29,707 nucleotides of DNA from Candidatus Hodarchaeota archaeon. Lineage in GTDB: Archaea; Asgardarchaeota; Heimdallarchaeia; Hodarchaeales; Hodarchaeaceae. The notes under the pieces are model-generated. The model was not told the origin of the DNA and did no database searches. It saw only the letters and a program-made list of their open reading frames with translations. The DNA lies in NCBI GenBank assembly GCA_016839785.1, contig JAEOTQ010000049.1, positions 1-29,707 on the forward strand, read 5' to 3'. Position numbers and translations under genes: made by a program. Shown here one piece after another: positions 615 through 23,779 of this stretch. Each line of letters begins with the position of its first letter. Within the stretch, counting starts at the first letter, position 1.

Positions 615-3224
615 ATGAAGATTACAAAAACTACTACTTCGTACATCAATTTCCTAATGGATGTAAACAATCATATAATTCATGAACGAGATTATTTAAT
701 CCTTTTTGACCAAAATAAGCAAACCAATAAACATCTATTGGCGCAAGTTAGTAGATTAACTCAAGAAAAAGAGAATGAAATGAAGGGAATCGCAAATATT
801 CTCGGTGAATTTGAAATGGATGAATTTCGCTTATTTCCATGTCGAATTCCTGTTTCAATGGATTCAGAAATATCTATTCCTCCAAGAGGATTGATTTCAA
901 AAATCATTTCCTATGATGGTGAAGAAGGTATATACTTAGGAGATATTATTACTTCTCCTAACTCAACTGATCCCTTCTTAATATCTCCTCAGTTTTTAGA
1001 ACGTCATGTTCTTTGTGTGGCGAGTACTGGAGCAGGTAAGTCTTATAGTATTGGGGTTTTGTTAGAAGAAATTCTATTAAAATTCAAAAATGCCTCAGTC
1101 CTTCTTTTTGACGTTCACAATGAATATTGGGGATTAGGATTAGAAAATCCAGGTCATGAAACAGACAGCCTTGATCGAGCGGGATACACCCCTCAGGGTT
1201 TCTCTGAACAAATTTTGGTCTTCGAAAAGGATTCGATTGGATTAGGTGCATATTTTGATTTACCAAAGTTAAGAAGATTGCTAGAAATATCTGCAGCCCA
1301 GGATAATGCTCTCATAAATATATTACAGGAGCCAGAAAATTTAGAAGACATTTTAACTAAATTACAAACCGCTGATATTCATACAGGAACCCGAGAAAAT
1401 TTAATTTCGAAAATCAACACTCTATTCAAACAATTTGTATATACTGAAGAATTAGATATTCCTTCTCTCGTAAGAGCAAATCAAGTATCGATCATTCGAT
1501 TGGATCAATATACCGATGAGAAAAAACGTAATACTCTTGTTACAGAGCTACTTACACAAATTTTTCAGAAGAAAGTCCAGGGTGAAATCTCAAATGAGCA
1601 AGAAATTCTCATTATTCTAGAAGAAGCACATAGATTTGCTCAAACTAGTGGTATACTTGCCAGAATAGCACGTGAAGGTAGAAAATTTGGAATCTATGAG
1701 ATATTAATATCTCAACGGCCAGGAGACCTACCAGATAATATCATTGCAAATATGAATACCTTAGTTGCTCTTCGTATAAAATCTGAAAAAGATATTACGA
1801 AAATAAGGTTGATGGAAGGGATAAATTCAGATACAGTTTCAGTTCTTCCTCATCTCACAAAAGGGGAAGCTCTCATTGTCGGTCTACAAGATGGAATTTC
1901 AAGTCCAATTAAAATAAAAATTCGCTCACGTCTGACCAAACATGTTGATCCTCAAAAAGATGTCATGCCAGAATCAATTCCACGGTATCCAGAGATAAAT
2001 CACTTCAAGGAACTTGAAGAATCAGTGGAAGACCTCACATTGGATACTAGTACTGATGAAAAGGATTCAATTTCGTCGCAGCTTACAATGAAACCAATTG
2101 ACCATAAGGACTTAGTAAATCTCCTCTATTGTGAACATATTATGATTACTCATAAGCTCACAGGAATTTGTTTGTATAAATATGGCACTTCAATGTTGAA
2201 AGTTGATCCACAATTAGTTTCTGGATTTTTAACAGCAATATCAAGTTTGTTCACTGAATTAAAAAGCGAGGAAATAAAAGATCGGACTATAGTCAGAGAC
2301 TTTTCCGAGGAGATTGGTGATCGAACTTTCAAAATCATAACTTTTGAAGGAAATTTCTCTGTAACCGCATTAATATTAGAACGTCCTCCAAAGTTTGGGA
2401 AACGATTGAGGAAACGAGGTAGGGAATTTGTGTATGCTTTTGAAAAGAAATTTAACAAACATCTATCAAATTTTATTGGAGAATTAGATCCTTTTCAAGA
2501 GGTTATTGAAGATCTTGATCAATATTTTGGGTTATCATTATTAGGACCCCTCACAATTAAGATAGATGATGAAAAACACGTGGTAGACGATCAGCTTCTT
2601 CAGGTGATTCAAGAACAAAGTAATCAACTAGCAAATACTGAAGGATTATTTATCAAAGAAATAGTGAATCATGGTTTCTTTAGTTCAAAATTCAAGTATA
2701 TAGAAATATTTGAGCAGCTTCTAAATCTTTTTAGAGAAAAAGTATTAGTTCCACAAGATTTTAATCGTAGATTACCTATTTTGAACGGTGAAGCTTTATC
2801 TATAGATGATGAAATTCCTATTGACGACACGCTACTTTCTCAGGCACAGGAAATTGACGAACTTTCTACAGGATCTACTCAGCATACTGGAATTATCGAT
2901 GAGTGGGTAACACAGATGGTCTCAGAGATTCATGATAACTCTTTACCAGATCAGCTTAAAGAAGATATATTAGTTCGAGATATCATATTTGAGTCAAATA
3001 TTAAACTAAAAGACAGCACTCCTAATATAAGTATTTATTCAGAAACAGAACTAGTGAAAAGTTTAGATTTACTGTCCAGGGCTGGTTTTATGATAAATAA
3101 AAAAGGTGTTAACCCTTTACGTGGCCCTAAGTATATTATTTCAACTGAAAATGCAGACTTAATCGTATCGATCTCAATGTATAAGGAAGATGCATATCTC
3201 TGTGTCATAGCTCAACTAGAATGA
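615..3224 (+). CDS. HerA/FtsK-superfamily (DUF87-type) ATPase with C-terminal longin-like domain and further C-terminal domains
   Basis: Walker A ASTGAGKS, FDVHNEY, Walker B ILEEAHRF, IAREGRKFG (Arg finger) and SQRP are all HerA-type motifs. After an acidic linker comes HIMITHKLTGICLY...DPQLVSGFLTAISS...FEKKF...FIGELDPF, typical of Asgard longin-like domains. Confidence 0.85.
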   Translation: MKITKTTTSYINFLMDVNNHIIHERDYLILFDQNKQTNKHLLAQVSRLTQEKENEMKGIANILGEFEMDEFRLFPCRIPVSMDSEISIPPRGLISKIISYDGEEGIYLGDIITSPNSTDPFLISPQFLERHVLCVASTGAGKSYSIGVLLEEILLKFKNASVLLFDVHNEYWGLGLENPGHETDSLDRAGYTPQGFSEQILVFEKDSIGLGAYFDLPKLRRLLEISAAQDNALINILQEPENLEDILTKLQTADIHTGTRENLISKINTLFKQFVYTEELDIPSLVRANQVSIIRLDQYTDEKKRNTLVTELLTQIFQKKVQGEISNEQEILIILEEAHRFAQTSGILARIAREGRKFGIYEILISQRPGDLPDNIIANMNTLVALRIKSEKDITKIRLMEGINSDTVSVLPHLTKGEALIVGLQDGISSPIKIKIRSRLTKHVDPQKDVMPESIPRYPEINHFKELEESVEDLTLDTSTDEKDSISSQLTMKPIDHKDLVNLLYCEHIMITHKLTGICLYKYGTSMLKVDPQLVSGFLTAISSLFTELKSEEIKDRTIVRDFSEEIGDRTFKIITFEGNFSVTALILERPPKFGKRLRKRGREFVYAFEKKFNKHLSNFIGELDPFQEVIEDLDQYFGLSLLGPLTIKIDDEKHVVDDQLLQVIQEQSNQLANTEGLFIKEIVNHGFFSSKFKYIEIFEQLLNLFREKVLVPQDFNRRLPILNGEALSIDDEIPIDDTLLSQAQEIDELSTGSTQHTGIIDEWVTQMVSEIHDNSLPDQLKEDILVRDIIFESNIKLKDSTPNISIYSETELVKSLDLLSRAGFMINKKGVNPLRGPKYIISTENADLIVSISMYKEDAYLCVIAQLE

Positions 3225-3285: not shown

Positions 3286-3340
3286 GAAAAGATCCTTGAC
3301 TATTCTTTAAACTCGGCCTTTCTAGAAAAGATCCTTGACT
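3286..3340. repeat. Exact 16-bp direct repeat GAAAAGATCCTTGACT (3286-3301 and 3325-3340)
   Basis: Read directly. The second copy encodes the last codons (VKDLF) of the 853-aa gene; the first copy lies 39 nt further downstream on the minus strand. Confidence 0.9.
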
Positions 3341-5883
3341 TTTTGTTCTTCTCCTGCAAAAGCATCCAAATCACCTAACCATTTGGGAAGCTTCTTTTTA
3401 TATCGTGTTTCAAAATCATTCAAGAATTCACCAAGCTTTTTACGGAGTTCGGTTGAGGTACTGTCTGCAAATATTGCGGCAAAGACCCATTTGGCATATT
3501 CAATTGTTAGAACGACATCTCCATGGTCAATAGTCTTGAGGAGTTGCTCACTCCGAACAGCTTCTTTTGCGAATGATGTAATAGCAGAAAATAATCCAGC
3601 AACTAGGGCTGGTTCTACTTGTGATTCATCTGCAAATGTGTGCGAAAGAACAGCCCGTCCATCCAGCATCATGACGTGAAGCGAATCGATAGTTACTTCT
3701 TCGAATGAATAGGAAAATTCACGATGCCACAAGGTTATGATCTGACTAAAAGATACTTCGGCATCGTATGTGACCTCATCGAGAATTGAGTGAATTTCAC
3801 TTATTGAAGTTTCAGTATTTTTTGCTAATTGAGAAATAGTCTGCATATGCCCTGTGATAGCATTTCGGATCATTTCACCCTTCTCAGACTTCATCCATGC
3901 TTTTGTTATTAATTCTTCCGTCTTTGCATTTTTGGAAGGTGTGGCTGCAATCATCAATATGTCCGCTTTCTTTTCTAATTCATCTACACTCAGTAGTCGT
4001 GTAACATCGGAAAAAATCGACTTATATTGAGTTTTTTCTTCGCCTTTTTGCGTTCTCACATGAAATTGTTTTCCAGCAAGGAATAAAATTCCTCCATAAA
4101 TTAAGACAATGGCTAAAGGATGAAATAGATTATATGGTATTGAGAGAATTTGTAAAAACTGACCACCTGATCCCTGCCAAATTACAGGTATCTGACGAAG
4201 CTCAGGTAGAATGAACTGATAGCCAGCGAATGTCCCGCCTTTCCACACTGCTGTTAACCAATTCAAATCGATGGTTCCCAAAACAGATGTAGCTTGCAGA
4301 AAGGGTGCGACTAAAATTTCTTTCTGATAACTAGGATACAAATCCCCCACAGAGAAACCTAGGATAGTATACCAACCCTCGTTGTACCAGCCAAATAAAA
4401 ATAGACTTACAGATAAGATTGAAAGATAGGTAACGATACTTGTTCCAATTATACTCCAATTCCATCTACGAATAAATAGGACCAATGTCGCACTTAAAAG
4501 AAAACTCGCATAATTCTGAGTCAACCAAAAGAAGGTTGCATATTGAACGGTGTTAAAATTAGTGAAAATGCTTTTAACAATTACTAAATATGTTAAGAAT
4601 CCGACAGATAAAAGAAAACCTACTAAAACGCCAGAAAGAGTACTTTTCGCTATATTAATCCTATTGAAACGGCCTACTGATATTTTAAAAGCTTTAAAGC
4701 TTTCTATAAGCTTAAGCAGTAAATATATCGAGAATGGTTCAAAAATATCTAAGAAAAGAACGAAAAATATCGATACCATGATAAAATAAGCAATAAAATA
4801 TGACACAACAAATATCTGATCGAAATATTGTACCAAAAACAATATTACAGCTAATCCTGACATAAAAGCTCCAACAGTAGATAAACTTTGAATCATTGCT
4901 ATATATAATTGATTTCCTAAGAATTTACCTTTCCTTGACAATAAACTAGCCTTTATTAGGTAGATACTAAATACGAACATGGCTATATAGGCAAAATATA
5001 TTTCTAAAAACCACCCCATTGAAGTTCCTTGAAGTAAGCTTGGATTTTCGGTCTCCCCTAATAGTTGTAAAATCGTCATCAATAAAAATAGAGTAATTGG
5101 CAATATAGCAATTAAAACTTTCAATAATTCTCTTTCATTATCCCAATTCTTCTCTTTAACCCTTTTTGTAACGGCATGAAACGGAGAAGCTTCAAGTTCA
5201 AATTCAATTTCCTGTAATCTCTGTGATGTCGATCGTGCCTCAGAAAGTTGTTTTTCCAGAGCTTTATTCTCGGCTTTGAATTCCGTAATAGCAGTATTCT
5301 TTTCATATGTATCTGATTCGGTTGTATTCTTTAATTGTTTTTGAAGCTGTGAGATCTCATTATTATTTCGTTTTATTAATTTTTTAATTGGATTTATCTC
5401 ATTCCGCTTCTCGGTCCAAGTCTGGTACAAAATTATTGCCATAGATATAATAGGTGACATTCCAAAAACGAAAGCAAGAATAACTATGGGGTAACTAAGG
5501 AAAATTACTATTGAATTGAAAAAATGTTGAAATAAATACTTTATCAGAAGTGGAATAGGAATAGAAATCGCTCCCTGGGTGATCACTGATTCGGAATCCC
5601 ATACAGTAGTCCATCCAGATGTTCCAGCTACTGGATAGTATTCTTGATCAATATATTGATTCGGATCTGGCACAAACGAGTTTAATATGCTGGGAAAAAT
5701 AAAATACGCAATATAGAATACAAGAAAACCGATATAAGCACGGTTAAAGAGTGTAGCAAAAAAATTCTCCGTCTTTCGTCGAGTATACAGGTACGGTAGA
5801 AAGAGAACGATTAAGGGAGAGAATGTTAATATCAGCGAAACTACTAAATTAATCGGGTCTGTTAGGAGATCAATATTTGTCAT
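3322..5883 (-). CDS. Polytopic membrane protein (~12 TM) with coiled-coil insert, possible HTH and C-terminal longin-like domain
   Basis: Many 20+ aa hydrophobic segments. Charged heptad-like stretch (NNNEISQLQKQLK...ENKALEKQLSEAR). HTH-like QTISQLAKNTETSISEIHSIL. C-terminal SLHVMMLDGRAVLS...EPALVAGLFSAITSFAKE...FLNDFETRY...WLGDLDAF. Confidence 0.8.
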   Translation of the reverse strand: MTNIDLLTDPINLVVSLILTFSPLIVLFLPYLYTRRKTENFFATLFNRAYIGFLVFYIAYFIFPSILNSFVPDPNQYIDQEYYPVAGTSGWTTVWDSESVITQGAISIPIPLLIKYLFQHFFNSIVIFLSYPIVILAFVFGMSPIISMAIILYQTWTEKRNEINPIKKLIKRNNNEISQLQKQLKNTTESDTYEKNTAITEFKAENKALEKQLSEARSTSQRLQEIEFELEASPFHAVTKRVKEKNWDNERELLKVLIAILPITLFLLMTILQLLGETENPSLLQGTSMGWFLEIYFAYIAMFVFSIYLIKASLLSRKGKFLGNQLYIAMIQSLSTVGAFMSGLAVILFLVQYFDQIFVVSYFIAYFIMVSIFFVLFLDIFEPFSIYLLLKLIESFKAFKISVGRFNRINIAKSTLSGVLVGFLLSVGFLTYLVIVKSIFTNFNTVQYATFFWLTQNYASFLLSATLVLFIRRWNWSIIGTSIVTYLSILSVSLFLFGWYNEGWYTILGFSVGDLYPSYQKEILVAPFLQATSVLGTIDLNWLTAVWKGGTFAGYQFILPELRQIPVIWQGSGGQFLQILSIPYNLFHPLAIVLIYGGILFLAGKQFHVRTQKGEEKTQYKSIFSDVTRLLSVDELEKKADILMIAATPSKNAKTEELITKAWMKSEKGEMIRNAITGHMQTISQLAKNTETSISEIHSILDEVTYDAEVSFSQIITLWHREFSYSFEEVTIDSLHVMMLDGRAVLSHTFADESQVEPALVAGLFSAITSFAKEAVRSEQLLKTIDHGDVVLTIEYAKWVFAAIFADSTSTELRKKLGEFLNDFETRYKKKLPKWLGDLDAFAGEEQKVKDLF

Positions 5884-6214: not shown

Positions 6215-7999
6215 TTATCGTCTCTTGCGATATGATGCGTAAAATACTGGTAGAGCAACTAATACAGAGATTAATTCAAATCCTGGTATGTTTAATCCCG
6301 TAGTATCGCTGCCTGATGGTCCATCAGTTGTTGTCTCTGGTTGAGCAGCTACAGCAGCTACCGCAGAGTAAGATGGATCATGATAGATTTCTCCACCATA
6401 CCACTCTGGAAATTCTGTGAATGTCAGATACAGGAGTTGGTTAATAACTTCAGTGTGTTGTCCTGCTCCTGGATGTACAATTTCTGGGGCAACTTTATTC
6501 GCCATAAAATATGTAAATGCCCAGGCGAGCGAAAACTCTACAATGAAATATGGTTTTGCGACATTTGCTGCAAACCATCCGCTTGGATCAAACAATGTAA
6601 CGTATACATCCCGATCAGTAGTAGCATTGATGTTGAATGGTTCAAAATCTAGCTCTCTTAGCTTGTAGTTCATCTTATTTTTGAAACTAGTCCAAAAGAA
6701 TACATTTCCATCTTTTTGGAGGTCGATAGTTGGATCTTCGGGTTCATCTAAGTGAGTAGCAAATTGAGGATTGCTAACTACTTGTGTATCGAACCAGTTT
6801 GTGGCTGTGACAACAGTCAATCCAAAGGCATCAGCCATGCTCATTCTAACTTTAGCATCGTCGTTAATAAAGAAGGCCATTTCTGACAATGTTAGTGTCA
6901 CACTAGAGGGAAATGTCCATGTACCAACTGTTTGACCTTGTAGTGCGGGAGGAACGTCTAGAGTATAACTGGGTGTTGCAGTAAAAGGAGTATCAATCCA
7001 ATCAGCGGCATGAGCAGTGATAAATGCACTGTCATCTTTTGTAACGAGTAAGTTTGTTTCACCGATATGATATCTGGTCTCTACTGTTCCCAAATTCACT
7101 TTAATTGAGGGAGTTGTTCCTAAATCAATCTCTTCCACTTTGAAAATATACTCAAATGCAAGATGATCTAAAACAGATGCTGCTACAATATCTTGTCCAT
7201 AAATAATTCCTTTAGTTTCTGGTAATTGTAGGCCCGCAGCGGATAAATAGTCTGGTCCCCGGAGTTTAACAGTAATATCTTGCCACAAGACAAACATATT
7301 AGTATAATTGATACCAAAAGTATAGCCATCTGCTGTTTGTTCAAAGCTGGCTTCGTAATCAAAAGGAGGAATTTCATAATGGGGCGCCATGGCAGTATTA
7401 AGAGCTGCTGCTACTTCTTGAATTGCAAAAGTATACCCCATGTAGAGATTATCTCCACTATCCATGAGAAGGGGATCTGAACCAGTTCCACCAGAATAGG
7501 CAACTAATGTCATGAAGTTGTTTGTAACGAATGCATCTGTATCCCAAGGAGTATTGAAATGTTGAACGAGCTGTTGGAATGGGGCTGTTGCATTTACGTG
7601 GACAAGATTTGTGTCAAGTGCCTCTGCTGCACCAGAAGGAGCTAAAGGTCCGAGTGTGTCAATAAGATCACCGACGTCATCAGGTAATAAATCACGGAAT
7701 TTTATCCAGTGCTCCATTTTCTCTAAAGCTGAGTAAGCTACTTCAATCCCAGATTTATTCATATAGCTCATAAAGAACTGTAAATCAGTTTCAGGGACTG
7801 AATCTATGCCTTCCACTCCAGTTTCAAAGTCGTAAATTACATCAGGGATAGCTGCATTTGGGTAAAGATCAATCTCGACAGCAAAATGATCCTCACTAAA
7901 ATCATGGTCTGCATAATCCGCGGCTTGAGCTGGAGAAGTAAATGTTAGAAGTATCAGTAAGAATATTACCGATATTCCCGTAATAACTTTTTTCTTCAT
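6215..7999 (-). CDS. Secreted cell-surface (glyco)protein with PGF-type C-terminal sorting/anchor signal
   Basis: Sec signal peptide MKKKVITGISVIFLLILLTFTSPAQA. Acidic, beta-rich body with sequons NKS, NAT, NYT, NAT. Thr/Ser/Gly linker ETTTDGPSGSDTTG, then IPGF + TM + RKRR. Confidence 0.85.
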   Translation of the reverse strand: MKKKVITGISVIFLLILLTFTSPAQAADYADHDFSEDHFAVEIDLYPNAAIPDVIYDFETGVEGIDSVPETDLQFFMSYMNKSGIEVAYSALEKMEHWIKFRDLLPDDVGDLIDTLGPLAPSGAAEALDTNLVHVNATAPFQQLVQHFNTPWDTDAFVTNNFMTLVAYSGGTGSDPLLMDSGDNLYMGYTFAIQEVAAALNTAMAPHYEIPPFDYEASFEQTADGYTFGINYTNMFVLWQDITVKLRGPDYLSAAGLQLPETKGIIYGQDIVAASVLDHLAFEYIFKVEEIDLGTTPSIKVNLGTVETRYHIGETNLLVTKDDSAFITAHAADWIDTPFTATPSYTLDVPPALQGQTVGTWTFPSSVTLTLSEMAFFINDDAKVRMSMADAFGLTVVTATNWFDTQVVSNPQFATHLDEPEDPTIDLQKDGNVFFWTSFKNKMNYKLRELDFEPFNINATTDRDVYVTLFDPSGWFAANVAKPYFIVEFSLAWAFTYFMANKVAPEIVHPGAGQHTEVINQLLYLTFTEFPEWYGGEIYHDPSYSAVAAVAAQPETTTDGPSGSDTTGLNIPGFELISVLVALPVFYASYRKRR

Positions 8000-8358: not shown

Positions 8359-10029
8359 TTAAGTTCTTCTCTTTCTTGAAAGGAAGACGACGAGTATGGC
8401 TAAAGAAATGAATCCAGGAAAGAATGAAAAATGTGATATTTTAGATAACCCAATGTTAATTTTCTTAGATTCTAATACTGCATTCGAAAGCGATCTTATT
8501 TTAGTTGGATAGCCATTCCATGAGTCTATTTGAAATTCTTGGACATATTCTGTGGACGTAAGGTATAGAGTAGCAATTTTAAGTAATTGTTCTGCATTAA
8601 GAGACAATATCGACTTATTAGTAACAAAACGTGAAACACTATCAGCTATCAACGAATTTAAAAGAGAAGCCTCCTCTAAGAACAGAATATTCCCGCTTAA
8701 ACTTGGATGTTGATTTAATGCGATTGATTTAATTGTTGTAGGAATCACTGACCATTTTTCTGTATTAGGATCTTGATGAAGAGCATAATCATGTCCCTTT
8801 ATATGATTAATAAACAATAAATCTTCATTTTGAGTGAGGGTGATATTTTCTGTGGCCACAATATCAGACTGTATTAATTCCTCTCTTGATGTATTGCGTC
8901 CATCAATACTAACAGTTGAACTTTTCTTTGATTCGGAACCCTCTACTACCCCTAGATTATGAGAAACGAGAAATGAAAGAGAGGCTTGGTTGAATAACGA
9001 CATTCTTTTGTTAATATCATCTCCTTTATACCAAGAAAATGTATCATTAACCCGAATTAATTCAGAATATTCTTTTTCAACATGAGTCTCAGAGGCTCCT
9101 TGCCAAATTACTTCAGAAGGTAATTCTTCATTAATTACCAAATTCTGAATGGTTCCAACATTCATTTCTAATTGTGTTTCCACTCCTGTATTGGTCGAAG
9201 TTGAGTATTTTAATATTCTTGTAGAAAAACTTAGTGATTCAAATTCTATCAAAAGAAATTTGTCTGAAATTCTGAAACTACTTATTTGTTCTATATTAAT
9301 CGGATTCGTTTGAAATAGATAACTTATATTGGAATATGTTGCCGTAATTACCAATTCATTGTAGTTTTCTTGTATCGAAATCTCCATTGGATTAGTACTA
9401 GAATATGAACGGATATCATTAGATGGTACATACCCATGAATTGAATTTTTTACCATATGAACAGAATTTATTGAATCAAACAAAAATTCTAAGATATCAA
9501 GAGGGATATTCGCATACCCTACTAAGTACTGATCGTCTACAAAATCATGTCCATCCAAATTCAATGTCAAACCCAATAAATCTTGAGTGAGAATTACGCT
9601 CTCTCCTGAAGGTAAACTATAGACGGATAGATATTTAAAATATGGTAAGGATGCTTGCCATTCTACTGTTCCAAATAGAGGAATAAATTCAGTTCTTTTG
9701 ATATTTTCTACAGCTAAGAATGCAGACTTAATTCCGTGAGAATCATGACCGACTAGCGTTATATTATTATCGATATTTGGATTGGGATCAGTTTCAATCC
9801 CAAATTCTTGGCCAGTTAAAATGTTATCAAATAATTGCAGGGATTGCCCAGGGGAAATATCATTATTATAATCGAACCTTAAACCGAACAATGATTCTTG
9901 ATAGAAGGGATCAAGTTGTTCAAATTGGTAATTGATTTTCCCTACGACTCCAACATTGAATGAAGTTAATACAACAAACAAAAAAACAAATGTAAAGCCA
10001 AGTCGTATCACAGAACTCCTGAAACTCAT
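8359..10029 (-). CDS. Secreted cell-surface protein, diverged paralog of 6215..7999, with PGF-like C-terminal anchor
   Basis: N-terminal signal-like hydrophobic stretch and C-terminal FFPGFISLAILVVFLSRKRRT. Several N-x-S/T sequons. Colinear motif similarity with the neighbouring gene. Confidence 0.8.
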   Translation of the reverse strand: MSFRSSVIRLGFTFVFLFVVLTSFNVGVVGKINYQFEQLDPFYQESLFGLRFDYNNDISPGQSLQLFDNILTGQEFGIETDPNPNIDNNITLVGHDSHGIKSAFLAVENIKRTEFIPLFGTVEWQASLPYFKYLSVYSLPSGESVILTQDLLGLTLNLDGHDFVDDQYLVGYANIPLDILEFLFDSINSVHMVKNSIHGYVPSNDIRSYSSTNPMEISIQENYNELVITATYSNISYLFQTNPINIEQISSFRISDKFLLIEFESLSFSTRILKYSTSTNTGVETQLEMNVGTIQNLVINEELPSEVIWQGASETHVEKEYSELIRVNDTFSWYKGDDINKRMSLFNQASLSFLVSHNLGVVEGSESKKSSTVSIDGRNTSREELIQSDIVATENITLTQNEDLLFINHIKGHDYALHQDPNTEKWSVIPTTIKSIALNQHPSLSGNILFLEEASLLNSLIADSVSRFVTNKSILSLNAEQLLKIATLYLTSTEYVQEFQIDSWNGYPTKIRSLSNAVLESKKINIGLSKISHFSFFPGFISLAILVVFLSRKRRT

Positions 10030-11517
10030 TTAACTCCTTACCTCCAAAACTTTATCCAATGATTCTACTCTGTTAGGGTTAATAATATATGAAGATCGCT
10101 TTTTCTCTTTGATGATCATAATTATTCCTAAATCAGAAAGTCTTTTGACATGATGTTGGATGCTCGAATGGTGTACATTTATTTCGGAGGAAATTTTCGA
10201 TAGAGAAAGTGGGGATTTGTTTTGTAATAATACTTTGCAGAGCTCTTTTGCCACATCACTCTTCAGGGCTAATGCAATCTCTGATATTTGTAGAGATTCC
10301 GATCCAGTTAAGTAGAAAATATGATATTTACCAATTTTATGATGTGTCACAATATTAAAATCATCTAATGCTTGTAAATGCCATAAAAGGGAAGATATAC
10401 CACATCCCAAAGTACGCTGTATTTCTCTCAAATGTGCTCCTTGTTCTCCTTTCTCTTCTAAATACTCAACTATTTGCATTCGCATTTCATTGTCCAATAG
10501 GTCATCTTCATTTATTCTTCTTTTCTGTGGAGAATAAGCAATATGGGCTATAAAGAAAAATAATCCGAGACTTGCTCCCATAATTAAATCACGAAGGCGT
10601 GCCAGTATACCGAATTTAATTAAGCCTATTAGTGAAATAATGGCCGTAATACCGATAATACCAACCGTAACAAGCTGATCAAATCCTGATATCTGAAATA
10701 TTCCAGATGAATCAGAGAACGTATCAGTAGTCAGAAGAGCGATATCTCCTAATACATCAACTAATCCATCTGCATCAGGAGAATTCATACCCATTAATTT
10801 AAAATCGTTAATTAGTGGCGGTAATGGTAGATTGACTGAAAAACTTCCTACAACCACTTTATTTTGGACAAGCCACAGACCTGATTTAAAATCTGTTAGA
10901 TATGACTCGTTTACGGGTTGAGCAATTTCAGCTAATACTACAGTTTTCTCATGTAAATCGACCCAAGATGATGTCCCATTGAACTCATATGTTAATTGAT
11001 CTAGTTGTAGGGATGGTAGAGATTCATTCACTAATTGAATGCTATGCGTCTGAGATTCATGATTTATTGGATAAACTTCAGGCCAATAACCAGTTATCCC
11101 TAAGTTTTGTAGTTCTGCAACAGGAGTTTTGTCAAAGTACCTGTTTAGGATGAACAATCCTTTACCACTTTGCGTCCACGCACCTAGATCACCCACAAAA
11201 GAGAAATCAATCGGCAAATGAAGTTCATTGACCCACCAAATTGCTTCTATGCTTTTATTATCGAATGTAAAAGAAGAATTCAATATAACAGATGTAATAT
11301 TATAATACTCTACATCGATCTCTGCTTCCAATATCATTTCTTCGCTAAGTCGTTTATCGTTATCTGAACCATAAAAGATAGCGATTTTAGGATAATCAGT
11401 TGCGGTCACTGAGTTAGTATGAGCTAAAGTGATCTGATTTGGAAAGAAGGATAATACTCCAAAGAAAATGATGGTAAGTATGAGAATATTACACTTGAGA
11501 AAAAATCGTCTTACCAT
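10030..11517 (-). CDS. Membrane-anchored transcriptional regulator: signal peptide, extracellular domain, TM region, tandem winged-helix (ArsR/COG3398-like) domains
   Basis: N-terminal signal/TM, then an ectodomain with six sequons, then TM LVTVGIIGITAIISLIGLI. wHTH1 is LLDNEMRMQIVEYL...HLREIQRTLGCGISSLLWHLQAL; wHTH2 is LSLSKISSEINVHHSSIQHHVKRLSDLGII. The stop abuts the ATG of the next gene (TAAATG). Confidence 0.85.
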   Translation of the reverse strand: MVRRFFLKCNILILTIIFFGVLSFFPNQITLAHTNSVTATDYPKIAIFYGSDNDKRLSEEMILEAEIDVEYYNITSVILNSSFTFDNKSIEAIWWVNELHLPIDFSFVGDLGAWTQSGKGLFILNRYFDKTPVAELQNLGITGYWPEVYPINHESQTHSIQLVNESLPSLQLDQLTYEFNGTSSWVDLHEKTVVLAEIAQPVNESYLTDFKSGLWLVQNKVVVGSFSVNLPLPPLINDFKLMGMNSPDADGLVDVLGDIALLTTDTFSDSSGIFQISGFDQLVTVGIIGITAIISLIGLIKFGILARLRDLIMGASLGLFFFIAHIAYSPQKRRINEDDLLDNEMRMQIVEYLEEKGEQGAHLREIQRTLGCGISSLLWHLQALDDFNIVTHHKIGKYHIFYLTGSESLQISEIALALKSDVAKELCKVLLQNKSPLSLSKISSEINVHHSSIQHHVKRLSDLGIIMIIKEKKRSSYIINPNRVESLDKVLEVRS

Positions 11518-11992: not shown

Positions 11993-12093
11993 GGAAAGAT
12001 GACCTACGCGAATATGTGTATGGATACTATGATTACACATTAAGACGAATCATAACTTATGAGAAAAAAATTCTCCCGTGGATGAAAAAAAAA

Positions 12094-13122
12094 ATGAAAC
12101 TAGTTAAAATATACCGTAAAAGACGAGCGGTGAGCCCTATATTAGCTGCTATCTTATTAATCGGATTAGCTGTAGCTGCAGGAGCCGTGCTTTTCGTCGT
12201 CGTTCTCCCAATGATTGGAGGAACCGCAAAAGTTGAGTTTGTTAGCGCAGTTGGAGCCGATCGTAATAGTGATGGCCTAATTGATCAAATCACTGTCTCG
12301 GTCCAAAATACCGGATCTGAAGCAGATACTTTTTCTGAAGGTACTATCTCCTTTACTGGTTGGAGTGTTGCAGGAAATGTTGAAATAGGACTAGCAAATC
12401 CTGTTAGTTTAGTTTTCAAAACAACAGATGTAACCCAACAAGTTTCTGAAGTGCAGACATTAACGATGACCCTTAAATTTGATACCAGTGCAGATATCGC
12501 TCTAACAGAGACTGATGTTGATATGGATCATGCCGCAACATTAACCGATTCTGATATGTTAATCGACTTCACTGATGGATATTGGTACGCTGAAGCTGGT
12601 GTGACTGGTGATGTTCTTTATAACGCAGACACTACCCGTAGTACTCACTCAGGAAAAGCAGGCGCTCAAATTGATCATAATAGTCATGCTGATGCAATTT
12701 ACTTTAGATCAATGGCCGCTCCAACAGGAGCAGAGACATGGCAAAACCTTAACAGCCAAGCTAACTCTCCAGAAGAGTGGGATGTAGCAGGAACTCCTAT
12801 TTTAAGCTTTTGGATGAAAACTGATGGAGGAACAGCTCCAGCTGCAGGAGGAACTGATCCTGATATATACCTTTGTTTAGCCATTTATGATGGTGCAACT
12901 CTCGAGCAATCAAACCAAAATGCGATTGCTAACGAGATAGAAGATCACGCAGTAGGCTTACAATCAGCTGATAGCGGATGGGTACACGTCTTAATTGACT
13001 TGTCTCAGTATAGCGGAACTTGGGCATCTACAACTGTGGGAAATTTTGGTATTCGAGTAATTGGTACCTCAAATCTAAATATTGCAATTGACGATGTCTC
13101 AGTCCACACTGCCTTAAATTAG
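12094..13122 (+). CDS. Archaeal type IV pilin-like protein (class III signal peptide) with C-terminal carbohydrate-binding-module-like domain
   Basis: KRRA|VSPILAAILLIGLAVAAGAVLFVVV is a prepilin peptidase site plus hydrophobic helix. The C-terminal LSFWMK...WVHVLIDLS...FGIRV...IAIDDV pattern is jelly-roll/CBM-like. Start moved from 12016 to ATG 12094 (12082 is also possible) to give a short basic leader. Confidence 0.85.
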   Translation: MKLVKIYRKRRAVSPILAAILLIGLAVAAGAVLFVVVLPMIGGTAKVEFVSAVGADRNSDGLIDQITVSVQNTGSEADTFSEGTISFTGWSVAGNVEIGLANPVSLVFKTTDVTQQVSEVQTLTMTLKFDTSADIALTETDVDMDHAATLTDSDMLIDFTDGYWYAEAGVTGDVLYNADTTRSTHSGKAGAQIDHNSHADAIYFRSMAAPTGAETWQNLNSQANSPEEWDVAGTPILSFWMKTDGGTAPAAGGTDPDIYLCLAIYDGATLEQSNQNAIANEIEDHAVGLQSADSGWVHVLIDLSQYSGTWASTTVGNFGIRVIGTSNLNIAIDDVSVHTALN

Positions 13123-13216: not shown

Positions 13217-13675
13217 CTATTTCAATCGACAGAATTCTGCACGATTTCTTACAAATTTATTAACAGCCATTTTCCCATCAGTAAGAATTTGACGCATGTT
13301 TAAAGCAAACTCATCCCAATAGGCTACTAATCTTTCTCGTTGATCCTTGGTTTTTACCATCTCAGTTGTCAGAAAAAAGGATATTTGATAGCCTTCTTCT
13401 GGACTTCTAATCACTTTGACACGGGCACCTGGATTTCTCCACAACTCGTTTCTTATTCGGTCAAAAATGAACTCTTCTACAGGATCGTTGAATGTCAATT
13501 TTAGGGAGGCAATAGCGGAGTTTCCTTGTTTTATCAGTATTCCATTTTTGAACTCTACTGTTTCTCGTTTAATGTTCTCACAGCATGGGTGATCGGGGTC
13601 AAGAATACAGTTCGGTTCCATACCTGCTGTACAAGGGACTGGAAAAAGTTGTAATTGTGATTCGTCTAAATTCAA
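13217..13675 (-). CDS. ARPC4-like protein (Arp2/3 complex subunit 4 homolog)
   Basis: NSAIASLKLTFNDPVEEFIFDRIRNELWRNPGARVKVIRSPEEGYQISFFLT aligns by eye with eukaryotic ARPC4 as recalled ([52 protein letters not shown]). The C-terminal helix KMAVNKFVRNRAEF matches KLSVNARARIVAEEF. TTG start with GGTGAG SD upstream. Confidence 0.85.
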   Translation of the reverse strand: MNLDESQLQLFPVPCTAGMEPNCILDPDHPCCENIKRETVEFKNGILIKQGNSAIASLKLTFNDPVEEFIFDRIRNELWRNPGARVKVIRSPEEGYQISFFLTTEMVKTKDQRERLVAYWDEFALNMRQILTDGKMAVNKFVRNRAEFCRLK

Positions 13676-13824: not shown

Positions 13825-14244
13825 TTAAAAATCTCGAGTTTTAAGTAACTTCATTTTGGTGGAACTAACCAAATAATGCATTAATCCTAGCTTCACACTG
13901 GAGTCGGTAATTAGCACGAGAATCGTACTCTGAACTTTGGAAATTATGCCTAATCCAACGGGAGTTTGAACATGGATAAAATCCACCTGATCTCCCAAAT
14001 TTAATTGGATACACGCACTTGAAAATGTACTTACTATTCCTGCAACCATTGCGGATACAACAGTTTCTACCTCATCTGACATTGGAAGAGTTCTGGCAGA
14101 TAATATAGGAAACCCCTCCTCACTTACTAACAAAACTTTTTTAACTCCTTTCACTGTTCCAAGACCATCAATGATCTTTTGAACTTTATCCATTGAATTA
14201 TACCCGTTATTATCTCCTAAGGACATATTTTCGAACGTGGCCAT
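13825..14244 (-). CDS. Roadblock/LC7 (MglB/LAMTOR-like) domain protein
   Basis: KGVKKVLLVSEEGFPILS...VSAMVAGIVS...LNLGDQVDFIHVQTPVG...ILVLITDSSVKLGLM is the classic roadblock pattern. Start placed at ATG 14244 after the AGGTGA SD (the ORF track uses GTG 14253). Confidence 0.88.
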   Translation of the reverse strand: MATFENMSLGDNNGYNSMDKVQKIIDGLGTVKGVKKVLLVSEEGFPILSARTLPMSDEVETVVSAMVAGIVSTFSSACIQLNLGDQVDFIHVQTPVGLGIISKVQSTILVLITDSSVKLGLMHYLVSSTKMKLLKTRDF

Positions 14245-14459
14245 CAAATTCACCTTTTAAGTATCAAATCATTCTATGAATTGATACTCTCCTTATAACC
14301 ACATAAAAATCAAAAAAGAAATGAAATTCCCGAATGCCAAGGAGAGGAGTTCTCTAAAGCATAGATGAAGGCAAAAGCTTTATTCTGAAACTCACATCCA
14401 AAGAGAAGCTTTTATTATTGCATTCTTATCCGAGGCAAATAGGCAAAGAGGTTAATGGA

Positions 14460-14642
14460 ATGAGTGAAAACATAAAAATGCAACGTTGTAATCCTTGTCA
14501 AGTTGCAGTTATGCCAAGTGAACATGGAACAGCTCGTTTTCCGTGCCCATCATGCGGAATGATACCAATCATTCGATGTGAGCGATGTCGAAAACTTGGA
14601 AATCGCTATATATGTCCTAATTGTGGTTTTTCTGGACCCTAA
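14460..14642 (+). CDS. Small zinc-ribbon protein (HVO_2753/DUF1610-like)
   Basis: Four CxxC pairs, FPCPSCG..IIRCERCRKLGNRYICPNCGFSGP. Conserved position upstream of EF-1beta. Start moved to ATG 14460. Confidence 0.9.
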   Translation: MSENIKMQRCNPCQVAVMPSEHGTARFPCPSCGMIPIIRCERCRKLGNRYICPNCGFSGP

Positions 14643-18751: not shown

Positions 18752-19051
18752 CTATGATTTGCGCTCGGAAAAGTTCAATTTAACAAGAGGAGGACATACT
18801 TTATCTGCTATAACTCCTCCATAAGCTATCGCTTTTTTTGATAATTCCTCAACATCCAATTTTGAAAATGCGGTCACTTCAAGAAATAAGCTGATTTCGA
18901 TATTCAATTCTCCCTTATCAGAGGATTCTAAGGTGATATCGATTTCACTATGTCCTAACTCATCCCCAGCTTCAGTAACTAAAAATTTGTGAATTTCCTC
19001 GTATAAATAATCAAGTAAGTCATCAGGATTCATTATGGACAAGAGATTCAC
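18752..19051 (-). CDS. Small acidic conserved archaeal protein (DUF3194-like)
   Basis: Size, acidic alpha/beta pattern, and position directly downstream of pfdB in the exosome superoperon. The true start may be a few codons downstream. Confidence 0.6.
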   Translation of the reverse strand: MNLLSIMNPDDLLDYLYEEIHKFLVTEAGDELGHSEIDITLESSDKGELNIEISLFLEVTAFSKLDVEELSKKAIAYGGVIADKVCPPLVKLNFSERKS

Positions 19052-19092
19052 CCTGACATGTTAATTTCAAGATAGAAAACTTAAGGCGGAGG

Positions 19093-19437
19093 TTATCCTA
19101 GGTCTTGACTTAATTTCTTTTGTAATTCCTCAAAACGTTCTACATTTTGCTTTTCTTGAGAGGATAATCCTTTTTTCTGAATTTCAAGCAATTCTCCTTT
19201 CTCATTTAATTCTTTTAAAACGTCTTGAGCCTTTTTTGGAAACATGACACCGCCAACAGCTTTCCAGACCTGGGTATCTCCTTCGAGAGTTTTTAACTCC
19301 TTCTTTGTAACTTCCATTTCCGAAAGTGCACGATCGATTTCATTTAACTGTAAACGGAGATTTTGTATATTTTGTTCTAGAGTCCTATAACGAACTAGTT
19401 GTTCTTGTTGAGCTGGAGAAAGTTCAGGGAGTGCCAT
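19093..19437 (-). CDS. pfdB: Prefoldin beta subunit
   Basis: ELSPAQQEQL, two coiled coils flanking the VWKAVGGVMF hairpin, and synteny. Confidence 0.93.
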   Translation of the reverse strand: MALPELSPAQQEQLVRYRTLEQNIQNLRLQLNEIDRALSEMEVTKKELKTLEGDTQVWKAVGGVMFPKKAQDVLKELNEKGELLEIQKKGLSSQEKQNVERFEELQKKLSQDLG

Positions 19438-19450
19438 TTTTTTATTTCCT

Positions 19451-19741
19451 CTAATATTGGGGATAATTTTTCTGGGTATTTACAATTTTCTTCGGGATTA
19501 TTTGAGTTAACTCGCATACCAAAGTAATCCAACGGAGCATTGAAGATATGTTCGCTTTTGCTGCTGTAATATCCTGTGAATTCACCGTAATTATCAGCGA
19601 AGTTCCTTCTAATTTCAACTTAATTTGTGATCTTTCAAAATGGTGGTCGTTAACTTCGGGAATTAATGATTCATAGATAAAATTGGCTTCTTCCAAGGAA
19701 TCAAGTCTAATTATTGTCTCAATACATACTCGACTATCCAT
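19451..19741 (-). CDS. pcc1: KEOPS complex subunit Pcc1
   Basis: EEANFIYESLIPE...RSQI...LIITVNSQDITAAKANISSMLRWI, and position between Brix and pfdB. Confidence 0.88.
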   Translation of the reverse strand: MDSRVCIETIIRLDSLEEANFIYESLIPEVNDHHFERSQIKLKLEGTSLIITVNSQDITAAKANISSMLRWITLVCELTQIIPKKIVNTQKNYPQY

Positions 19742-20316
19742 TATGCCACTTCAGGGTTCAAAGTGATTTCGAAAGATAACAAAGGTAGTTGATTTTTTGG
19801 ATCATTTCTAACTACTTCCCCACGAAATTTGCCATCCAAGTAGTCACGAAATTTTATTTTAAGACTAGTTTTCGATGGTTTACTAGCCTTAGGGACAAGT
19901 AATGGCTTTATAAAATTATGAATGTGCTCTTTCAATGATTCTGGAATATCTGGAGCATAATCGATAAGGATATTTTTATTCTCAATTCGTGTGTTTTTAT
20001 CCCCTTTTTGTGGAAAATTGAAATTCATTAATTTGACTTCAACATCAATTTGGAGAGGTGATTTCACGAAGTCATAGCAACAGAGAGAGATTGAATCAAT
20101 TTTTCTTGAGCTTTGAACAATGACCACCTTATCGATGCCCATATTCCAACAGAAATTTCGAATTTCTTTCAGACTTAATGATCCACGATTCATCCTTTTG
20201 GAAAAAGGAAGTGAAAAAGATATTAATTTACTTACACGTCTTATAAAATGAGAAGGATTGCGAGATGTCGTTATTAACAAAGGAGAGGCACCCTCTCTCT
20301 CGTTATCTGCCATCAT
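19741..20316 (-). CDS. Brix/Imp4-domain ribosome biogenesis protein
   Basis: LLITTSRNPS...NRGSLSLKEI Brix signatures, and synteny. Confidence 0.85.
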   Translation of the reverse strand: MMADNEREGASPLLITTSRNPSHFIRRVSKLISFSLPFSKRMNRGSLSLKEIRNFCWNMGIDKVVIVQSSRKIDSISLCCYDFVKSPLQIDVEVKLMNFNFPQKGDKNTRIENKNILIDYAPDIPESLKEHIHNFIKPLLVPKASKPSKTSLKIKFRDYLDGKFRGEVVRNDPKNQLPLLSFEITLNPEVA

Positions 20317-20357
20317 TCATCATTTTAACTAGATTCTTATGAGGGTGAAATCCCTCT

Positions 20358-20633
20358 CTAAGAATCAGTCTGCGTAGCAAGTCGTTTAGCTGTTCTTTGG
20401 GCTATTTTGCCTCCGGGGGTTTCTGGAGCCCATGATCCACCTGTATATCTGAATCCACAGAATTTGCATTCCCAAATCCCAATAGATACACGTTTAACTT
20501 TCAGGGAATCGCAGGAAGGACAAACATGAAACTTTTTTGAGTCCTGTTCAATTTTTTTAACTCGCTTGCGTATTGTAGCTCCATAACGGGTACCAAAACG
20601 TCCAGTTGAACCTACTTTCTTAGTACGACCCAT
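20358..20633 (-). CDS. rpl37ae: 50S ribosomal protein eL43 (L37Ae)
   Basis: RTKKVGSTGRFGTRYGATIRK, CPSC...GIWECKFC. Confidence 0.97.
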   Translation of the reverse strand: MGRTKKVGSTGRFGTRYGATIRKRVKKIEQDSKKFHVCPSCDSLKVKRVSIGIWECKFCGFRYTGGSWAPETPGGKIAQRTAKRLATQTDS

Positions 20634-20683
20634 TTTACCACCAAGTCTCCAATTTTAAGTGTATGTTTTTTACTTTTTGAAGG

Positions 20684-21538
20684 TTAGAAATCAAATTGAT
20701 ACATCTCATTCATTTCGGGGAATTGAGAACATTCCTCAATCTTCTCAAGTAACGGTGCCACCAAAGTAGCTCCTTGATCCAAAATTGTAGTAAACTCTTC
20801 CTCGGTGAATACTCCAGATTCTCCTTTCTGCATCGAACAGATAATTCCTTTATCAGTCATGGCAAAAGAAAATCGTGCTTCTTTTCCCCTATCTTCGAGT
20901 AGATTGGGATCATAGAATATGGAATCGTTAATTTTGGCAAAAGTTAGGCTAGCAACGGATCCGTTCCTTGGAAGAGGTTCTGTTTCCTCCAAAAGAGTAA
21001 CTTCTTCGAGATCCTCGTTGATTACAACCTTTCTTAGTCGGGTATTTGCAAGCGCGGCCATTGCGCCGAGAGCGGCAGCATCAATTAAATTTCCACCATC
21101 ATCAAGAATATAGACATCAATAAAAATAATCCAAACTTTCTTTCCAGGAATAACACATAATTTTGGATCCTTCATAGGCATAATTTTGCTTTCACGAATA
21201 CCACGATCGACAACACGGGCCAACTCAACGGTTCGGGGACCAGGAGGGCCACTTTCATTGGTTGGTGACGAAATTGGTGATATTTCTGCATTTACAGTAA
21301 TAACGCCGTCATTCGGTGTATCAGGGAAAGGTGAACCTAGCTGAGCTTTCACACCTGCTAGTATAACAGTTTCTCCCCATTTAACCATTGCTGATCCTTC
21401 TGCTTTTTTAATTACATTTGGAATAATCTGAACGGGTCTACCTTCCAAAAATTTTCTTCCATCTGCTCTTTTTCCTTTTTCAAGCAATTTAGTTATGTAT
21501 TGCTTCTCTAAAACTCCAACTATTTCTTCTGAACGCAT
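20684..21538 (-). CDS. rrp42: Exosome subunit Rrp42
   Basis: RNase PH fold motifs KAEGSA, PFPDTPNDG, ELARVVDRGIRES, DDGGNLIDAA. Start placed at ATG 21538 after AGGTGA (ORF track 21547). Confidence 0.95.
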   Translation of the reverse strand: MRSEEIVGVLEKQYITKLLEKGKRADGRKFLEGRPVQIIPNVIKKAEGSAMVKWGETVILAGVKAQLGSPFPDTPNDGVITVNAEISPISSPTNESGPPGPRTVELARVVDRGIRESKIMPMKDPKLCVIPGKKVWIIFIDVYILDDGGNLIDAAALGAMAALANTRLRKVVINEDLEEVTLLEETEPLPRNGSVASLTFAKINDSIFYDPNLLEDRGKEARFSFAMTDKGIICSMQKGESGVFTEEEFTTILDQGATLVAPLLEKIEECSQFPEMNEMYQFDF

Positions 21539-21547
21539 AATATTCAC

Positions 21548-22303
21548 CTACTCCTCTTCGTCCCCCACGTCATTAGTAGTACCCTCAATTTGGGTATATT
21601 TGGCCAAGACTGCTTCTCTTTGCAACTTGTAAACATCACCAATAGCTCGAATTGCGAGTGATAAACCTTCTTTTACTTCCTCAATTGTGAACTCACCATC
21701 ACATTGGAGCAAAGTGATTTCCCCAGTGTTAAAGTTCATCGCAACAGGCATGTCACCTTGGCCATCTTTATCTTCGACATCGGACAGGTCAACAACCATT
21801 TTGTCTGCGACCTTTCCTACAGCACATCCAGTAATGAAACCTTTCATTGGAATCCCCGCATCTGCAAGGGCTATTGAGGCTGCAGTCAACGCGGCACAGC
21901 GAGTGCCTCCATCTGCATCTAAAACTGTTATATAAACATCAATTGTACCGTTTGGAAACTTTTCTAAGAATAAAACGGCATCTAATGATTCCTTAATTAA
22001 TTTACTTAATTCATATTCTCTACGTCTTGGAGCAGGGCTTTTTCGCTCATTGACAGAAAATGTAGCTAATCGATATTCAACTCGGACTATAGCGCGATCA
22101 GGTTTTGCCAGATGTTTTGGGTGCAATTCCCTAGGACCGTATACTGCACATATTATTTTGTTATTACCCCAAGTTAGATAACAACTCCCATCTGCTCTGT
22201 CCAAAACACTACTTTGCATAGTAATTGGACGTAATTCATGAAGTTCTCTACCATCTAAACGTCGTCCATCATCCATAAGTAGAGATGTTTTTTCTTTTGT
22301 CAT
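21548..22303 (-). CDS. rrp41: Exosome catalytic subunit Rrp41
   Basis: GRRLDGR..ELRPI, VYGPRELHP, ADGGTRCA, EDKDGQGDMP with catalytic Asp residues present. Start at ATG 22303 (ORF track 22312). Confidence 0.96.
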   Translation of the reverse strand: MTKEKTSLLMDDGRRLDGRELHELRPITMQSSVLDRADGSCYLTWGNNKIICAVYGPRELHPKHLAKPDRAIVRVEYRLATFSVNERKSPAPRRREYELSKLIKESLDAVLFLEKFPNGTIDVYITVLDADGGTRCAALTAASIALADAGIPMKGFITGCAVGKVADKMVVDLSDVEDKDGQGDMPVAMNFNTGEITLLQCDGEFTIEEVKEGLSLAIRAIGDVYKLQREAVLAKYTQIEGTTNDVGDEEE

Positions 22304-22318
22304 ATATTTCAACCTTTA

Positions 22319-23026
22319 TTATAAATTCTTTTTTTCTTCTTCTAAATAAGCACGAATCCTATCTGTAAGCCCACTAGTATGAGCTTCTGCTTCAATCTTG
22401 CGAATTGCACGAATAACTAGATTTTCCTTTTCAACCGAATTTGCAGAAACCACAATACGTCCATTTTGACCAACAATAATTTGCGCATTAGTCATATTTT
22501 TTAGCAATTGAATCATACTGCCCTTCTTACCTATTATTCGTGGTATTTTCACTGGATCAACATCAATTAACCTTCCGTGGGTTATTTTTCGAAGACCTCT
22601 TCCTTGCATCGTAAGTACAGGATCTCTAGTACGATCAAAGTAAGTAATCTGTGCTTTAATGATGTCTCCAAAGTTTAAAACCTCTTCTAAGCTCTCTCTG
22701 AGAGAATCGAAATCGCGATCTAATACACTGTTTACTCGAAGAGCACCAACATATGGGCCTCGTATATCAACATTCCAAGAGGTAATTCCAACCCTAACAA
22801 TTTTTCCAATAATAATATCTCCCTCTAAAGGAATATAACAACCTTCTAATGGGACAACACCAACACTGTCTTTCCGTATTTTAACTAATCCAATCATGGA
22901 GGCTATAATTTCAGTTTCTCCTTTCACTTTTTTCCGATAGACTCCACCCGCAACATCGACTCCAGATCCACGTGCGAGAACTTCACCTGGTACGACCAGC
23001 TGATTTTTGCTTACTAATAATGTCAT
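22319..23026 (-). CDS. rrp4: Exosome RNA-binding subunit Rrp4
   Basis: VVPGEVL, YIPLEGDIIIG (S1 domain), PRIIGKKGSMI (KH domain), VGQNGRI, EAHTSGLTDRI. Start moved to ATG 23026 to remove the overlap with SBDS. Confidence 0.95.
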   Translation of the reverse strand: MTLLVSKNQLVVPGEVLARGSGVDVAGGVYRKKVKGETEIIASMIGLVKIRKDSVGVVPLEGCYIPLEGDIIIGKIVRVGITSWNVDIRGPYVGALRVNSVLDRDFDSLRESLEEVLNFGDIIKAQITYFDRTRDPVLTMQGRGLRKITHGRLIDVDPVKIPRIIGKKGSMIQLLKNMTNAQIIVGQNGRIVVSANSVEKENLVIRAIRKIEAEAHTSGLTDRIRAYLEEEKKNL

Positions 23027-23042
23027 TTTTATCACTTTATTA

Positions 23043-23777: not shown

Positions 23778-23779
23778 GA

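Follow-up and report, generated by a model that had tools for sequence, protein, structure and literature searches.

A 29,707-nucleotide stretch of DNA from a Candidatus Hodarchaeota archaeon (contig JAEOTQ010000049.1, positions 1 to 29,707, assembly GCA_016839785.1; called the window below) carries a gene for an 869-amino acid (aa) HerA-like ATPase (P0001) in which a HerA-type core is followed by a predicted longin, a winged-helix-like (wH) segment and a C-terminal domain. The open reading frame (ORF) spans positions 615..3224 (+) exactly. We show that this protein is a real lineage-specific paralogue within the HerA clade, with a fixed tail made up of longin, wH, linker and alpha/beta parts. 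It probably works away from NurA-linked DNA repair, perhaps at the membrane. Rings of the HerA/FtsK type are known to pump DNA in association with nucleases, septa, conjugation or virus packaging, and longin domains are characteristic of membrane traffic in eukaryotes. We found no paper in the literature that links HerA with a longin in Asgard archaea or describes a HerA-longin protein; in the portions of PMC10933270 and PMC13734099 on which we draw, Asgard longin, roadblock and GTPase repertoires are described and HerA goes unmentioned.

The fusion is conserved throughout one family

To define the distribution of the HerA-longin protein, we used a word-indexed protein search, which listed 63 relatives at 400-1871 bits before a sharp drop to 148 bits. 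Most of the 63 are 850-915 aa long with a coverage of 95-100%, and the proteins below the drop are ordinary HerA-like proteins. The relatives are labelled Hodarchaeales, Hodarchaeota, Heimdallarchaeota or Promethearchaeota, and a single one is labelled Thorarchaeota. In a phylum sample of 301 genomes, the full architecture is present in 20/20 other genomes of the window's GTDB family, and three other families gave matches to the core only (30-34% identity; frames of 620-700 aa). A search of 83 genomes of the class, with a distant family member as query, found the full architecture in 21/21 family genomes and in 0/61 others. Two distant full-length relatives (P0062 and P0063; 33-37% identity) were not found in two genomes of the same order or in the 83 class genomes.

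Each family genome has one match to the gene, except G136, in which the orthologue (C163:3637-6045) is split into two matches (aa 1-467 and 586-867) within a single contig, possibly through a frameshift or faulty assembly. For the tail itself, conservation throughout the family excludes an origin by misassembly or by an accidental frameshift fusion.

A HerA-type ATPase core with invariant motifs

The N-terminal region (aa 1-105; 615..929, +) occupies the position of the HerA HAS-barrel and aligns with the N-terminal parts of HerA proteins; in the case of 9x1l, residues 108-245 aligned to residues 59-197 of our query. Its mean identity to the window protein is 46% among aligned family sequences. 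There was no Pfam match to the HAS-barrel in the 869-aa protein, and a sister clade (see below) gave weak, sub-threshold ones.

The P-loop ATPase core (aa 106-445; 930..1949, +) was assigned from Pfam DUF87, from alignments to 4d2i and 9x1l, and from invariant columns. The DUF87/HerA central domain (PF01935) matched aa 107-240 (E 2.6e-17; 64.1 bits against a cut-off of 23.2), weaker AAA_10 and HerA_C matches reached aa 426, and the Pfam scan of the 869-aa protein returned nothing past aa 450. The nearest solved chains are HerA, namely 9x1l_A (E 1.9e-24) and 4d2i_A (E 4e-22). In alignments with both chains, Walker A (ASTGAGKS; TGAGKS at 138-143), the EEAH Walker B (336-339), REGRKFG (REGRK at 353-357) and SQRP (QRP at 367-369) line up with HerA, and all four are invariant among 41 family sequences. 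REGRKFG, the arginine-finger region of the core, is intact. These alignments bear out the claim of an earlier note on this DNA that all HerA catalytic motifs are intact within the first ~440 aa. Because the motifs align with solved HerA and do not vary in 41 sequences, the HerA-type core looks catalytically complete. No transmembrane (TM) helix was predicted in the protein.

The tail contains a predicted longin fold and an alpha/beta domain

We modelled the tail twice: model 1, built from 9 sequences, was poor, with a predicted local distance difference test (pLDDT) score of 59, and model 2 (aa 490-869; 39 sequences) scored 77 overall and ~90 in its folded parts. Folds were sought among 48,161 PDB representatives (VIA), independently of Foldseek, which gave weak E-values for the whole tail (best 3e-4).

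The longin-fold domain (aa 496-642; 2100..2540, +) includes a conserved DPQLVSGFL(S/T)AIS helix. In model 2 its top match is synbindin (2zmv_A; Z 11.7, root-mean-square deviation 2.7 over 118 aa), and it also matches Sec22 (3egd_C; Z 10.7), VAMP7 (4afi_B; Z 10.2) and a synaptobrevin-like longin (Z 9.9). A Lokiarchaeal longin, 8yqg_B, scored Z 9.9 with model 2 and Z 11.2 with model 1. The longins of sedlin, AP sigma/mu, SRX, CPLANE, C9orf72 and Mon1-Ccz1 followed at Z 9.8-7.2, and roadblock chains scored lower (Z 7.3-7.9). Longin-fold matches score Z 9.6-11.7 over both searches, and those at Z 9.7-11.7 span 114-133 residues at 8-10% sequence identity; no Pfam longin or roadblock family matched aa 490-662 even at E up to 10. 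Residues ~497-640 are predicted to adopt a longin fold consisting of a five-stranded sheet, a central helix and C-terminal helices. With longins heading the fold search and a pLDDT of ~90, this agrees with the longin-like domain that had been placed at nucleotides ~2130-2530 (aa 506-639).

The segment that follows (aa 643-722; 2541..2780, +) is modelled as a winged-helix-like three-helix bundle plus hairpin and ends IFEQLLNLFREKVLVP. Residues 193-269 of model 1 matched the winged helices of SAMD1 (6lui_A) and of the MCM C terminus (2ma3) at Z 7.0 each, and 2m45 at Z 6.7, the matches covering 59-65 aa; Pfam gave no match to the segment. The winged helix-turn-helix-like (wHTH) character that the earlier note had given it is thus plausible but, at a borderline Z of 7.0 over about 60 aa, not firm, because this value falls in the range flagged as possibly common; we refer to aa ~643-720 as winged-helix-like in that sense. 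Two acidic linkers, likewise noted before, are both present, poorly conserved and modelled as disordered: linker 1 (aa ~446-495; 1950..2099, +) has a pLDDT below 50 and 26% identity, and linker 2 (aa ~723-762; 2781..2900, +) has a pLDDT of 24-31 and 10% identity.

The terminal domain (aa 763-869; 2901..3221, +), in which DIL-R---FES and NPL-G-K motifs are conserved, had been described as beta-rich. Its status as a domain stands, with a confident model (pLDDT ~90), but the modelled order is helix-helix-strand-helix followed by 4 strands, and it is therefore alpha/beta rather than purely beta. It was not placed by the fold search because the longin filled both whole-tail match lists. A PDB profile search of aa 763-869 gave a best E of 0.89, Pfam was empty at E up to 10, the ESM Atlas had no usable match, and hhalign against the family of the membrane-protein neighbour described below returned a probability of 0.14%. 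Short "stand-alone" matches to the end domain (P0126, P0133, P0136 and P0151) align as pieces of the HerA-longin family and are probably gene fragments.

Conservation across the parts of the protein follows function: mean identity to the window protein is 66.2% for the ATPase core and 61.5% for the longin, falls to 39% for the wH segment and 38% for the end domain, and is lowest (10-26%) for the linkers.

The protein belongs to no named repair, defence or Ced family

We compared the protein with NCBIfam models of known HerA types. It scored 108 bits with the repair HerA equivalog NF040819 (cut-off 970), 82.9 bits with Thermoproteota HerA NF040937 (cut-off 800), 66.3 and 76.9 bits with anti-phage HerA NF042943 and NF042944 (cut-offs 800 and 850), and 63.7 bits with CedD NF053655 (cut-off 600). 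PADLOC HerA models match the core only (best E 3.2e-36; mad8, E 8.8e-23), and the 4 neighbours that were scanned gave no match to any PADLOC defence model.

The genome (4.04 Mb, 84.5% complete) contains six DUF87 matches. The earlier note had proposed a look for separate herA-nurA loci, and there are two HerA-NurA pairs on other contigs: DUF87 genes on C95 and C9 adjoin NurA genes. A search of the genome for a Rad50 zinc hook was negative, but at this completeness that is no evidence of absence. The earlier note had seen no adjacent nurA, mre11, rad50, Sir2 or nuclease gene, and in a scan of 30 window ORFs we found no match to NurA, Mre11, Rad50, Sir2, nuclease or small-GTPase families.

A quick maximum-likelihood tree of 42 ATPase cores, built without named CedB, VirB4 or FtsK references, took up the suggestion that the core be placed by phylogeny. 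The HerA-longin family itself (11 tree rows) is recovered with a branch support (SH-like approximate likelihood ratio test, SH-aLRT) of 99. It falls in a clade (SH-aLRT 94) with the two distant full-length relatives and five 640-680-aa Asgard HerA-like proteins, the NurA-adjacent C95 HerA groups apart, and the C9 protein is on a very long branch. By sequence, then, the 869-aa protein is distinct from the genome's two NurA-linked HerAs and belongs to a separate Asgard-only clade in this tree. Three findings had been named in advance as speaking against the earlier note's reading, namely a sole HerA in the genome, grouping with repair HerA and an artefactual tail; we observed none of them. Its proposal that the motor was recruited away from DNA end resection holds insofar as this is not the genome's NurA-linked HerA, but the trafficking or GTPase role attached to it found no direct support.

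The five sister proteins (loci L140-L144, from other Asgard families) share 30-32% identity over the core and have a tail of ~200 aa, with no longin match by hidden Markov model (HMM) and no NurA neighbour. Their neighbours include AAA_18 kinase-like, AIR-synthase-like, PIN_9, NAD kinase and FEN1 genes.

The same longin subtype sits on membrane proteins

A search with the tail only, against 1.84 billion representatives, returned 399 matches at E up to 0.001. Most of these cover tail residues ~50-265 (longin plus wH), and the matched module is often C-terminal in proteins of 1000-1900 aa. Among 30 module-bearing proteins that we scanned, seven have Ig-like families (Big_1, Big_3_5, MG), one has PCI and winged-helix families and 22 have none; we saw no GTPase domain in these 30. 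One metagenomic relative of the longin module (L094:5440-6015) has an internal stop codon in its matched frame and was excluded from the alignment.

Within the genome, a longin HMM built from the ATPase family found 27 other ORFs. In 11/27, including 7/7 of the best-scoring, the ORF encodes a membrane protein whose longin follows the last TM helix, and the HerA-like protein is the only soluble enzyme in the best-scoring group. The gap between TM helix and longin is 7 to 48 aa in 10/11; the exception, at 138 aa, is the 853-aa protein encoded next to the ATPase gene, which is the second-best match (E 4.7e-15). The longin-tailed membrane proteins include single-pass proteins of 827-2768 aa. Two MFS_1 transporters (C76:20341-22083 and C14:17178-18833; L151 and L152) carry a cytosolic longin directly after the last TM helix. 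Hence, these archaea have a large unannotated longin subtype that is attached to membrane proteins, MFS transporters included, at their cytosolic ends.

Neighbouring genes and synteny

The gene that converges on the ATPase gene (P0270; 3322..5883, -) encodes the 853-aa polytopic membrane protein, a candidate partner with ~11 predicted TM helices. It lies on the opposite strand with its end 97 nucleotides from the ATPase stop. A cytosolic coiled-coil loop (aa ~155-250) and a 240-aa cytosolic C-terminal region are predicted, the latter including the longin-type domain (aa 731-853; 3325..3693, -). This domain is the most conserved part of the protein, at 84% identity in the family and 44% across Asgard, as against 26% for the TM core. 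This longin end of the protein hardly varies among family members whose sequences otherwise share 62-66% identity. Homologues of the membrane protein are common in other Asgard families (720-770 aa; 27-36% identity over aa ~215-853) and are without the first four helices and the coiled coil. The ESM Atlas returned only an unnamed Asgard cluster for the 853-aa protein.

Four more envelope genes lie beyond. They encode a surface protein of 594 aa, an uncertain member of the group, that has a signal peptide and is anchored through Heimdall-CTERM (6215..7999, -; NF045529, 25.9 bits against 24), a 556-aa protein with an N-terminal signal or TM segment and a C-terminal TM anchor (8359..10029, -), a 495-aa protein that combines an ectodomain and TM helices with two wHTH domains on the cytosolic side (10030..11517, -; Pfam HTH_20 and HTH_HVO_0163_N), and a 368-aa protein whose N terminus carries an archaellin/type IV pilin signal (12016..13122, +; TIGR02537, 25.4 bits against 20). 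The ATPase had been called an orphan. This holds only loosely: its convergent neighbour carries the same longin subtype and is followed by these four genes. Homologues of the five envelope genes occur in the same order in 20, 18, 16, 16 and 10 of 20 orthologous loci, and those missing are mostly at contig ends.

As a control, we examined the upstream flank. A thioredoxin-reductase-like homologue is present in 19/19 other loci, and PTPS and MptE-like homologues in 18. At 3-6 kb upstream of the ATPase gene, an MBL/DRMBL-fold protein is encoded in 12 other loci and a MutS-domain-V protein in nine, for example at L001:5709-6620 (-) and, with 737 aa, at L003:3697-5910 (-); here, the window's left end falls short of this position. 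With both flanks conserved in the control, we did not accept synteny as proof of a partnership.

Elsewhere in the window, a block at 18752-24562 (-) encodes prefoldin beta, Pcc1, L37ae, an Rrp42/Rrp41-like RNase PH pair, Rrp4, SBDS and proteasome alpha. Because this exosome-proteasome block lies in the same window, we regard the region as core chromosome. An ARPC4-like gene (13217-13675, -; Pfam ARPC4, E 1.8e-7) adjoins a Roadblock/LC7 gene (13825-14253, -; E 6.2e-9), a pair that recurs in loci L117 and L118. A 74-aa ORF at 14418-14642 (+) has four CxxC pairs and looks like a zinc ribbon.

Discussion

A HerA-longin fusion that is fixed in all sampled genomes of one Hodarchaeales family offers an expressible protein with which to probe what longins did before eukaryotes, whether membrane docking, GTPase control or something else. 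Our tentative suggestion is that the tail recruits a hexameric motor to the membrane: it would pair there with a juxtamembrane longin, the first candidate for which is the one on the convergent neighbour. The core would form a HerA-like, ATP-driven hexamer that pulls a polymer through its ring, and six flexible tails would position the ring in the cell. The longin domain would be the docking piece, and the 853-aa membrane protein, if it is the partner, would hold the motor at the membrane beside the envelope genes. The substrate might be DNA, as in FtsK, the coupling proteins and the Ced system, or protein; the winged helix and the end domain may bind this substrate or further partners. That the longin could pair with the longin of a membrane protein is suggested by the subtype itself, which elsewhere is mostly attached to membrane proteins at the cytosolic face.

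Several observations weigh against such docking, or against the neighbour as its site. The longin subtype is common in the genome, and the neighbour's copy is no closer to that of the ATPase than is the copy in an unlinked C105 protein (56.0 vs 55.1 bits). The two genes are convergent and not co-transcribed. Both flanks are equally syntenic, and since all 20 loci belong to one family, adjacency says little on partnership. At eight membrane-protein loci examined in other families, neither a HerA-like gene nor any conserved neighbour was found (0/8). Modelling aa 490-869 of the tail as a complex with the neighbour's C-terminal 244 aa gave values (score 0.01, mark 0.32) that count neither way.

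We also considered that the motor is switched by a GTPase, the longin binding a small GTPase, as in TRAPP, DENN, Mon1-Ccz1 and SRX-SRbeta, whose cycle would activate or place the ring. The closest folds are indeed those of longins that have small GTPases as targets or partners (synbindin/TRAPPC4, Z 11.7; Fuzzy/CPLANE 7q3d, Z 9.8; SRX 2go5, Z 9.2), and Asgard genomes are rich in Rab/Rag/Arf-like GTPases and in longin/roadblock domains, sometimes fused, according to the part of PMC10933270 used here. However, small-GTPase families matched 0/30 window ORFs, no GTPase domain accompanies the module in the 30 proteins scanned, and the same part of that source notes that some longins act without GTPases. 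The absence of a nearby GTPase is not decisive, because GTPase genes in Asgard archaea generally lie outside operons with longin genes (PMC10933270, same part). The subtype is found mostly on the cytosolic side at the membrane, and membrane docking is therefore at least as likely to be what the longin points to as GTPase control; we consider a GTPase-switched motor unlikely. We give similarly little credence to a soluble HerA of DNA metabolism with a partner other than NurA, in which the winged helix would bind DNA and the longin would dimerise the tails or recruit a nuclease in trans. The best sequence relatives are repair HerAs, the wH domain resembles that of the MCM C terminus (Z 7.0), and MBL/DRMBL and MutS-domain-V genes occur upstream in 12 and nine other loci. 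However, three unrelated housekeeping genes lie between these genes and the ATPase, the score of the wH match is borderline, no nuclease is adjacent among the 30 window ORFs, and all HerA equivalog cut-offs are far above the score obtained. Were the protein an ordinary soluble repair helicase, it would be merely one more HerA paralogue.

The tail could instead be self-regulatory, the longins of neighbouring subunits pairing into three dimers per hexamer that gate or stack rings without an outside partner. Solved Asgard and bacterial longins or roadblocks are described as dimeric in the titles of their entries (8yqg, "Dimeric structure"; 9jue, "homodimer"; 3t1s, "MglB Homodimer"), and the longin is strongly conserved, but self-pairing leaves unexplained why the subtype is juxtamembrane elsewhere, and we judge it quite improbable. 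Most doubtful is an anti-virus defence HerA with an unrecognised effector, which we would hardly expect to prove correct. PADLOC HerA models do match the core (best E 3.2e-36), but the gene is present in 21/21 family genomes at a fixed core-chromosome site near pterin, exosome and proteasome genes, we looked for a patchy, island-like distribution without seeing one, the 4 neighbours have no PADLOC match, and the anti-phage HerA models reach 66-77 bits where 800-850 are required.

Membrane docking of the HerA-longin motor may also be part of something broader, although we think this unlikely: in these archaea, the nearest to eukaryotes, the longin tails that transporters, polytopic proteins and giant surface proteins carry could already form a general membrane-address system that recruits soluble machines, with the HerA ring docked to its neighbour by longin-longin pairing as an apparatus that translocates DNA or protein at the envelope. 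If true, the longin-based recruitment of eukaryotic trafficking would have a prokaryotic forerunner here, and the HerA/FtsK superfamily would gain a new mode of membrane coupling.

Comparison with known systems

With the archaeal HerA of HerA-NurA (Mre11-Rad50) end resection (4d2i, 9x1l), the protein shares the core, its motifs, and alignable N-terminal and central domains. It differs in an identity of ~30% or less, in having no adjoining NurA, in its separate clade, and in a 420-aa tail that canonical HerA lacks. The 640-680-aa Asgard HerA-like proteins (L140-L144), its sister clade, are likewise without a NurA neighbour, but their tail is shorter and has no longin HMM match. FtsK, type IV coupling proteins and the Ced DNA-import ATPase are membrane-coupled members of the HerA/FtsK superfamily. 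The HerA-longin protein belongs to the same superfamily and may similarly act at the membrane, near envelope and pilin-like genes; unlike them, it has no TM helix of its own, so that docking would be via the longin, a mode that to our knowledge is known in none of the three. Eukaryotic and Asgard longins (2zmv, 3egd, 4afi and the Lokiarchaeal Roadblock-Longin 8yqg) have in common with the tail longin its predicted fold, whereas here the longin is fused to a ring ATPase and its sequence relatives are mostly the cytosolic tails of membrane proteins.

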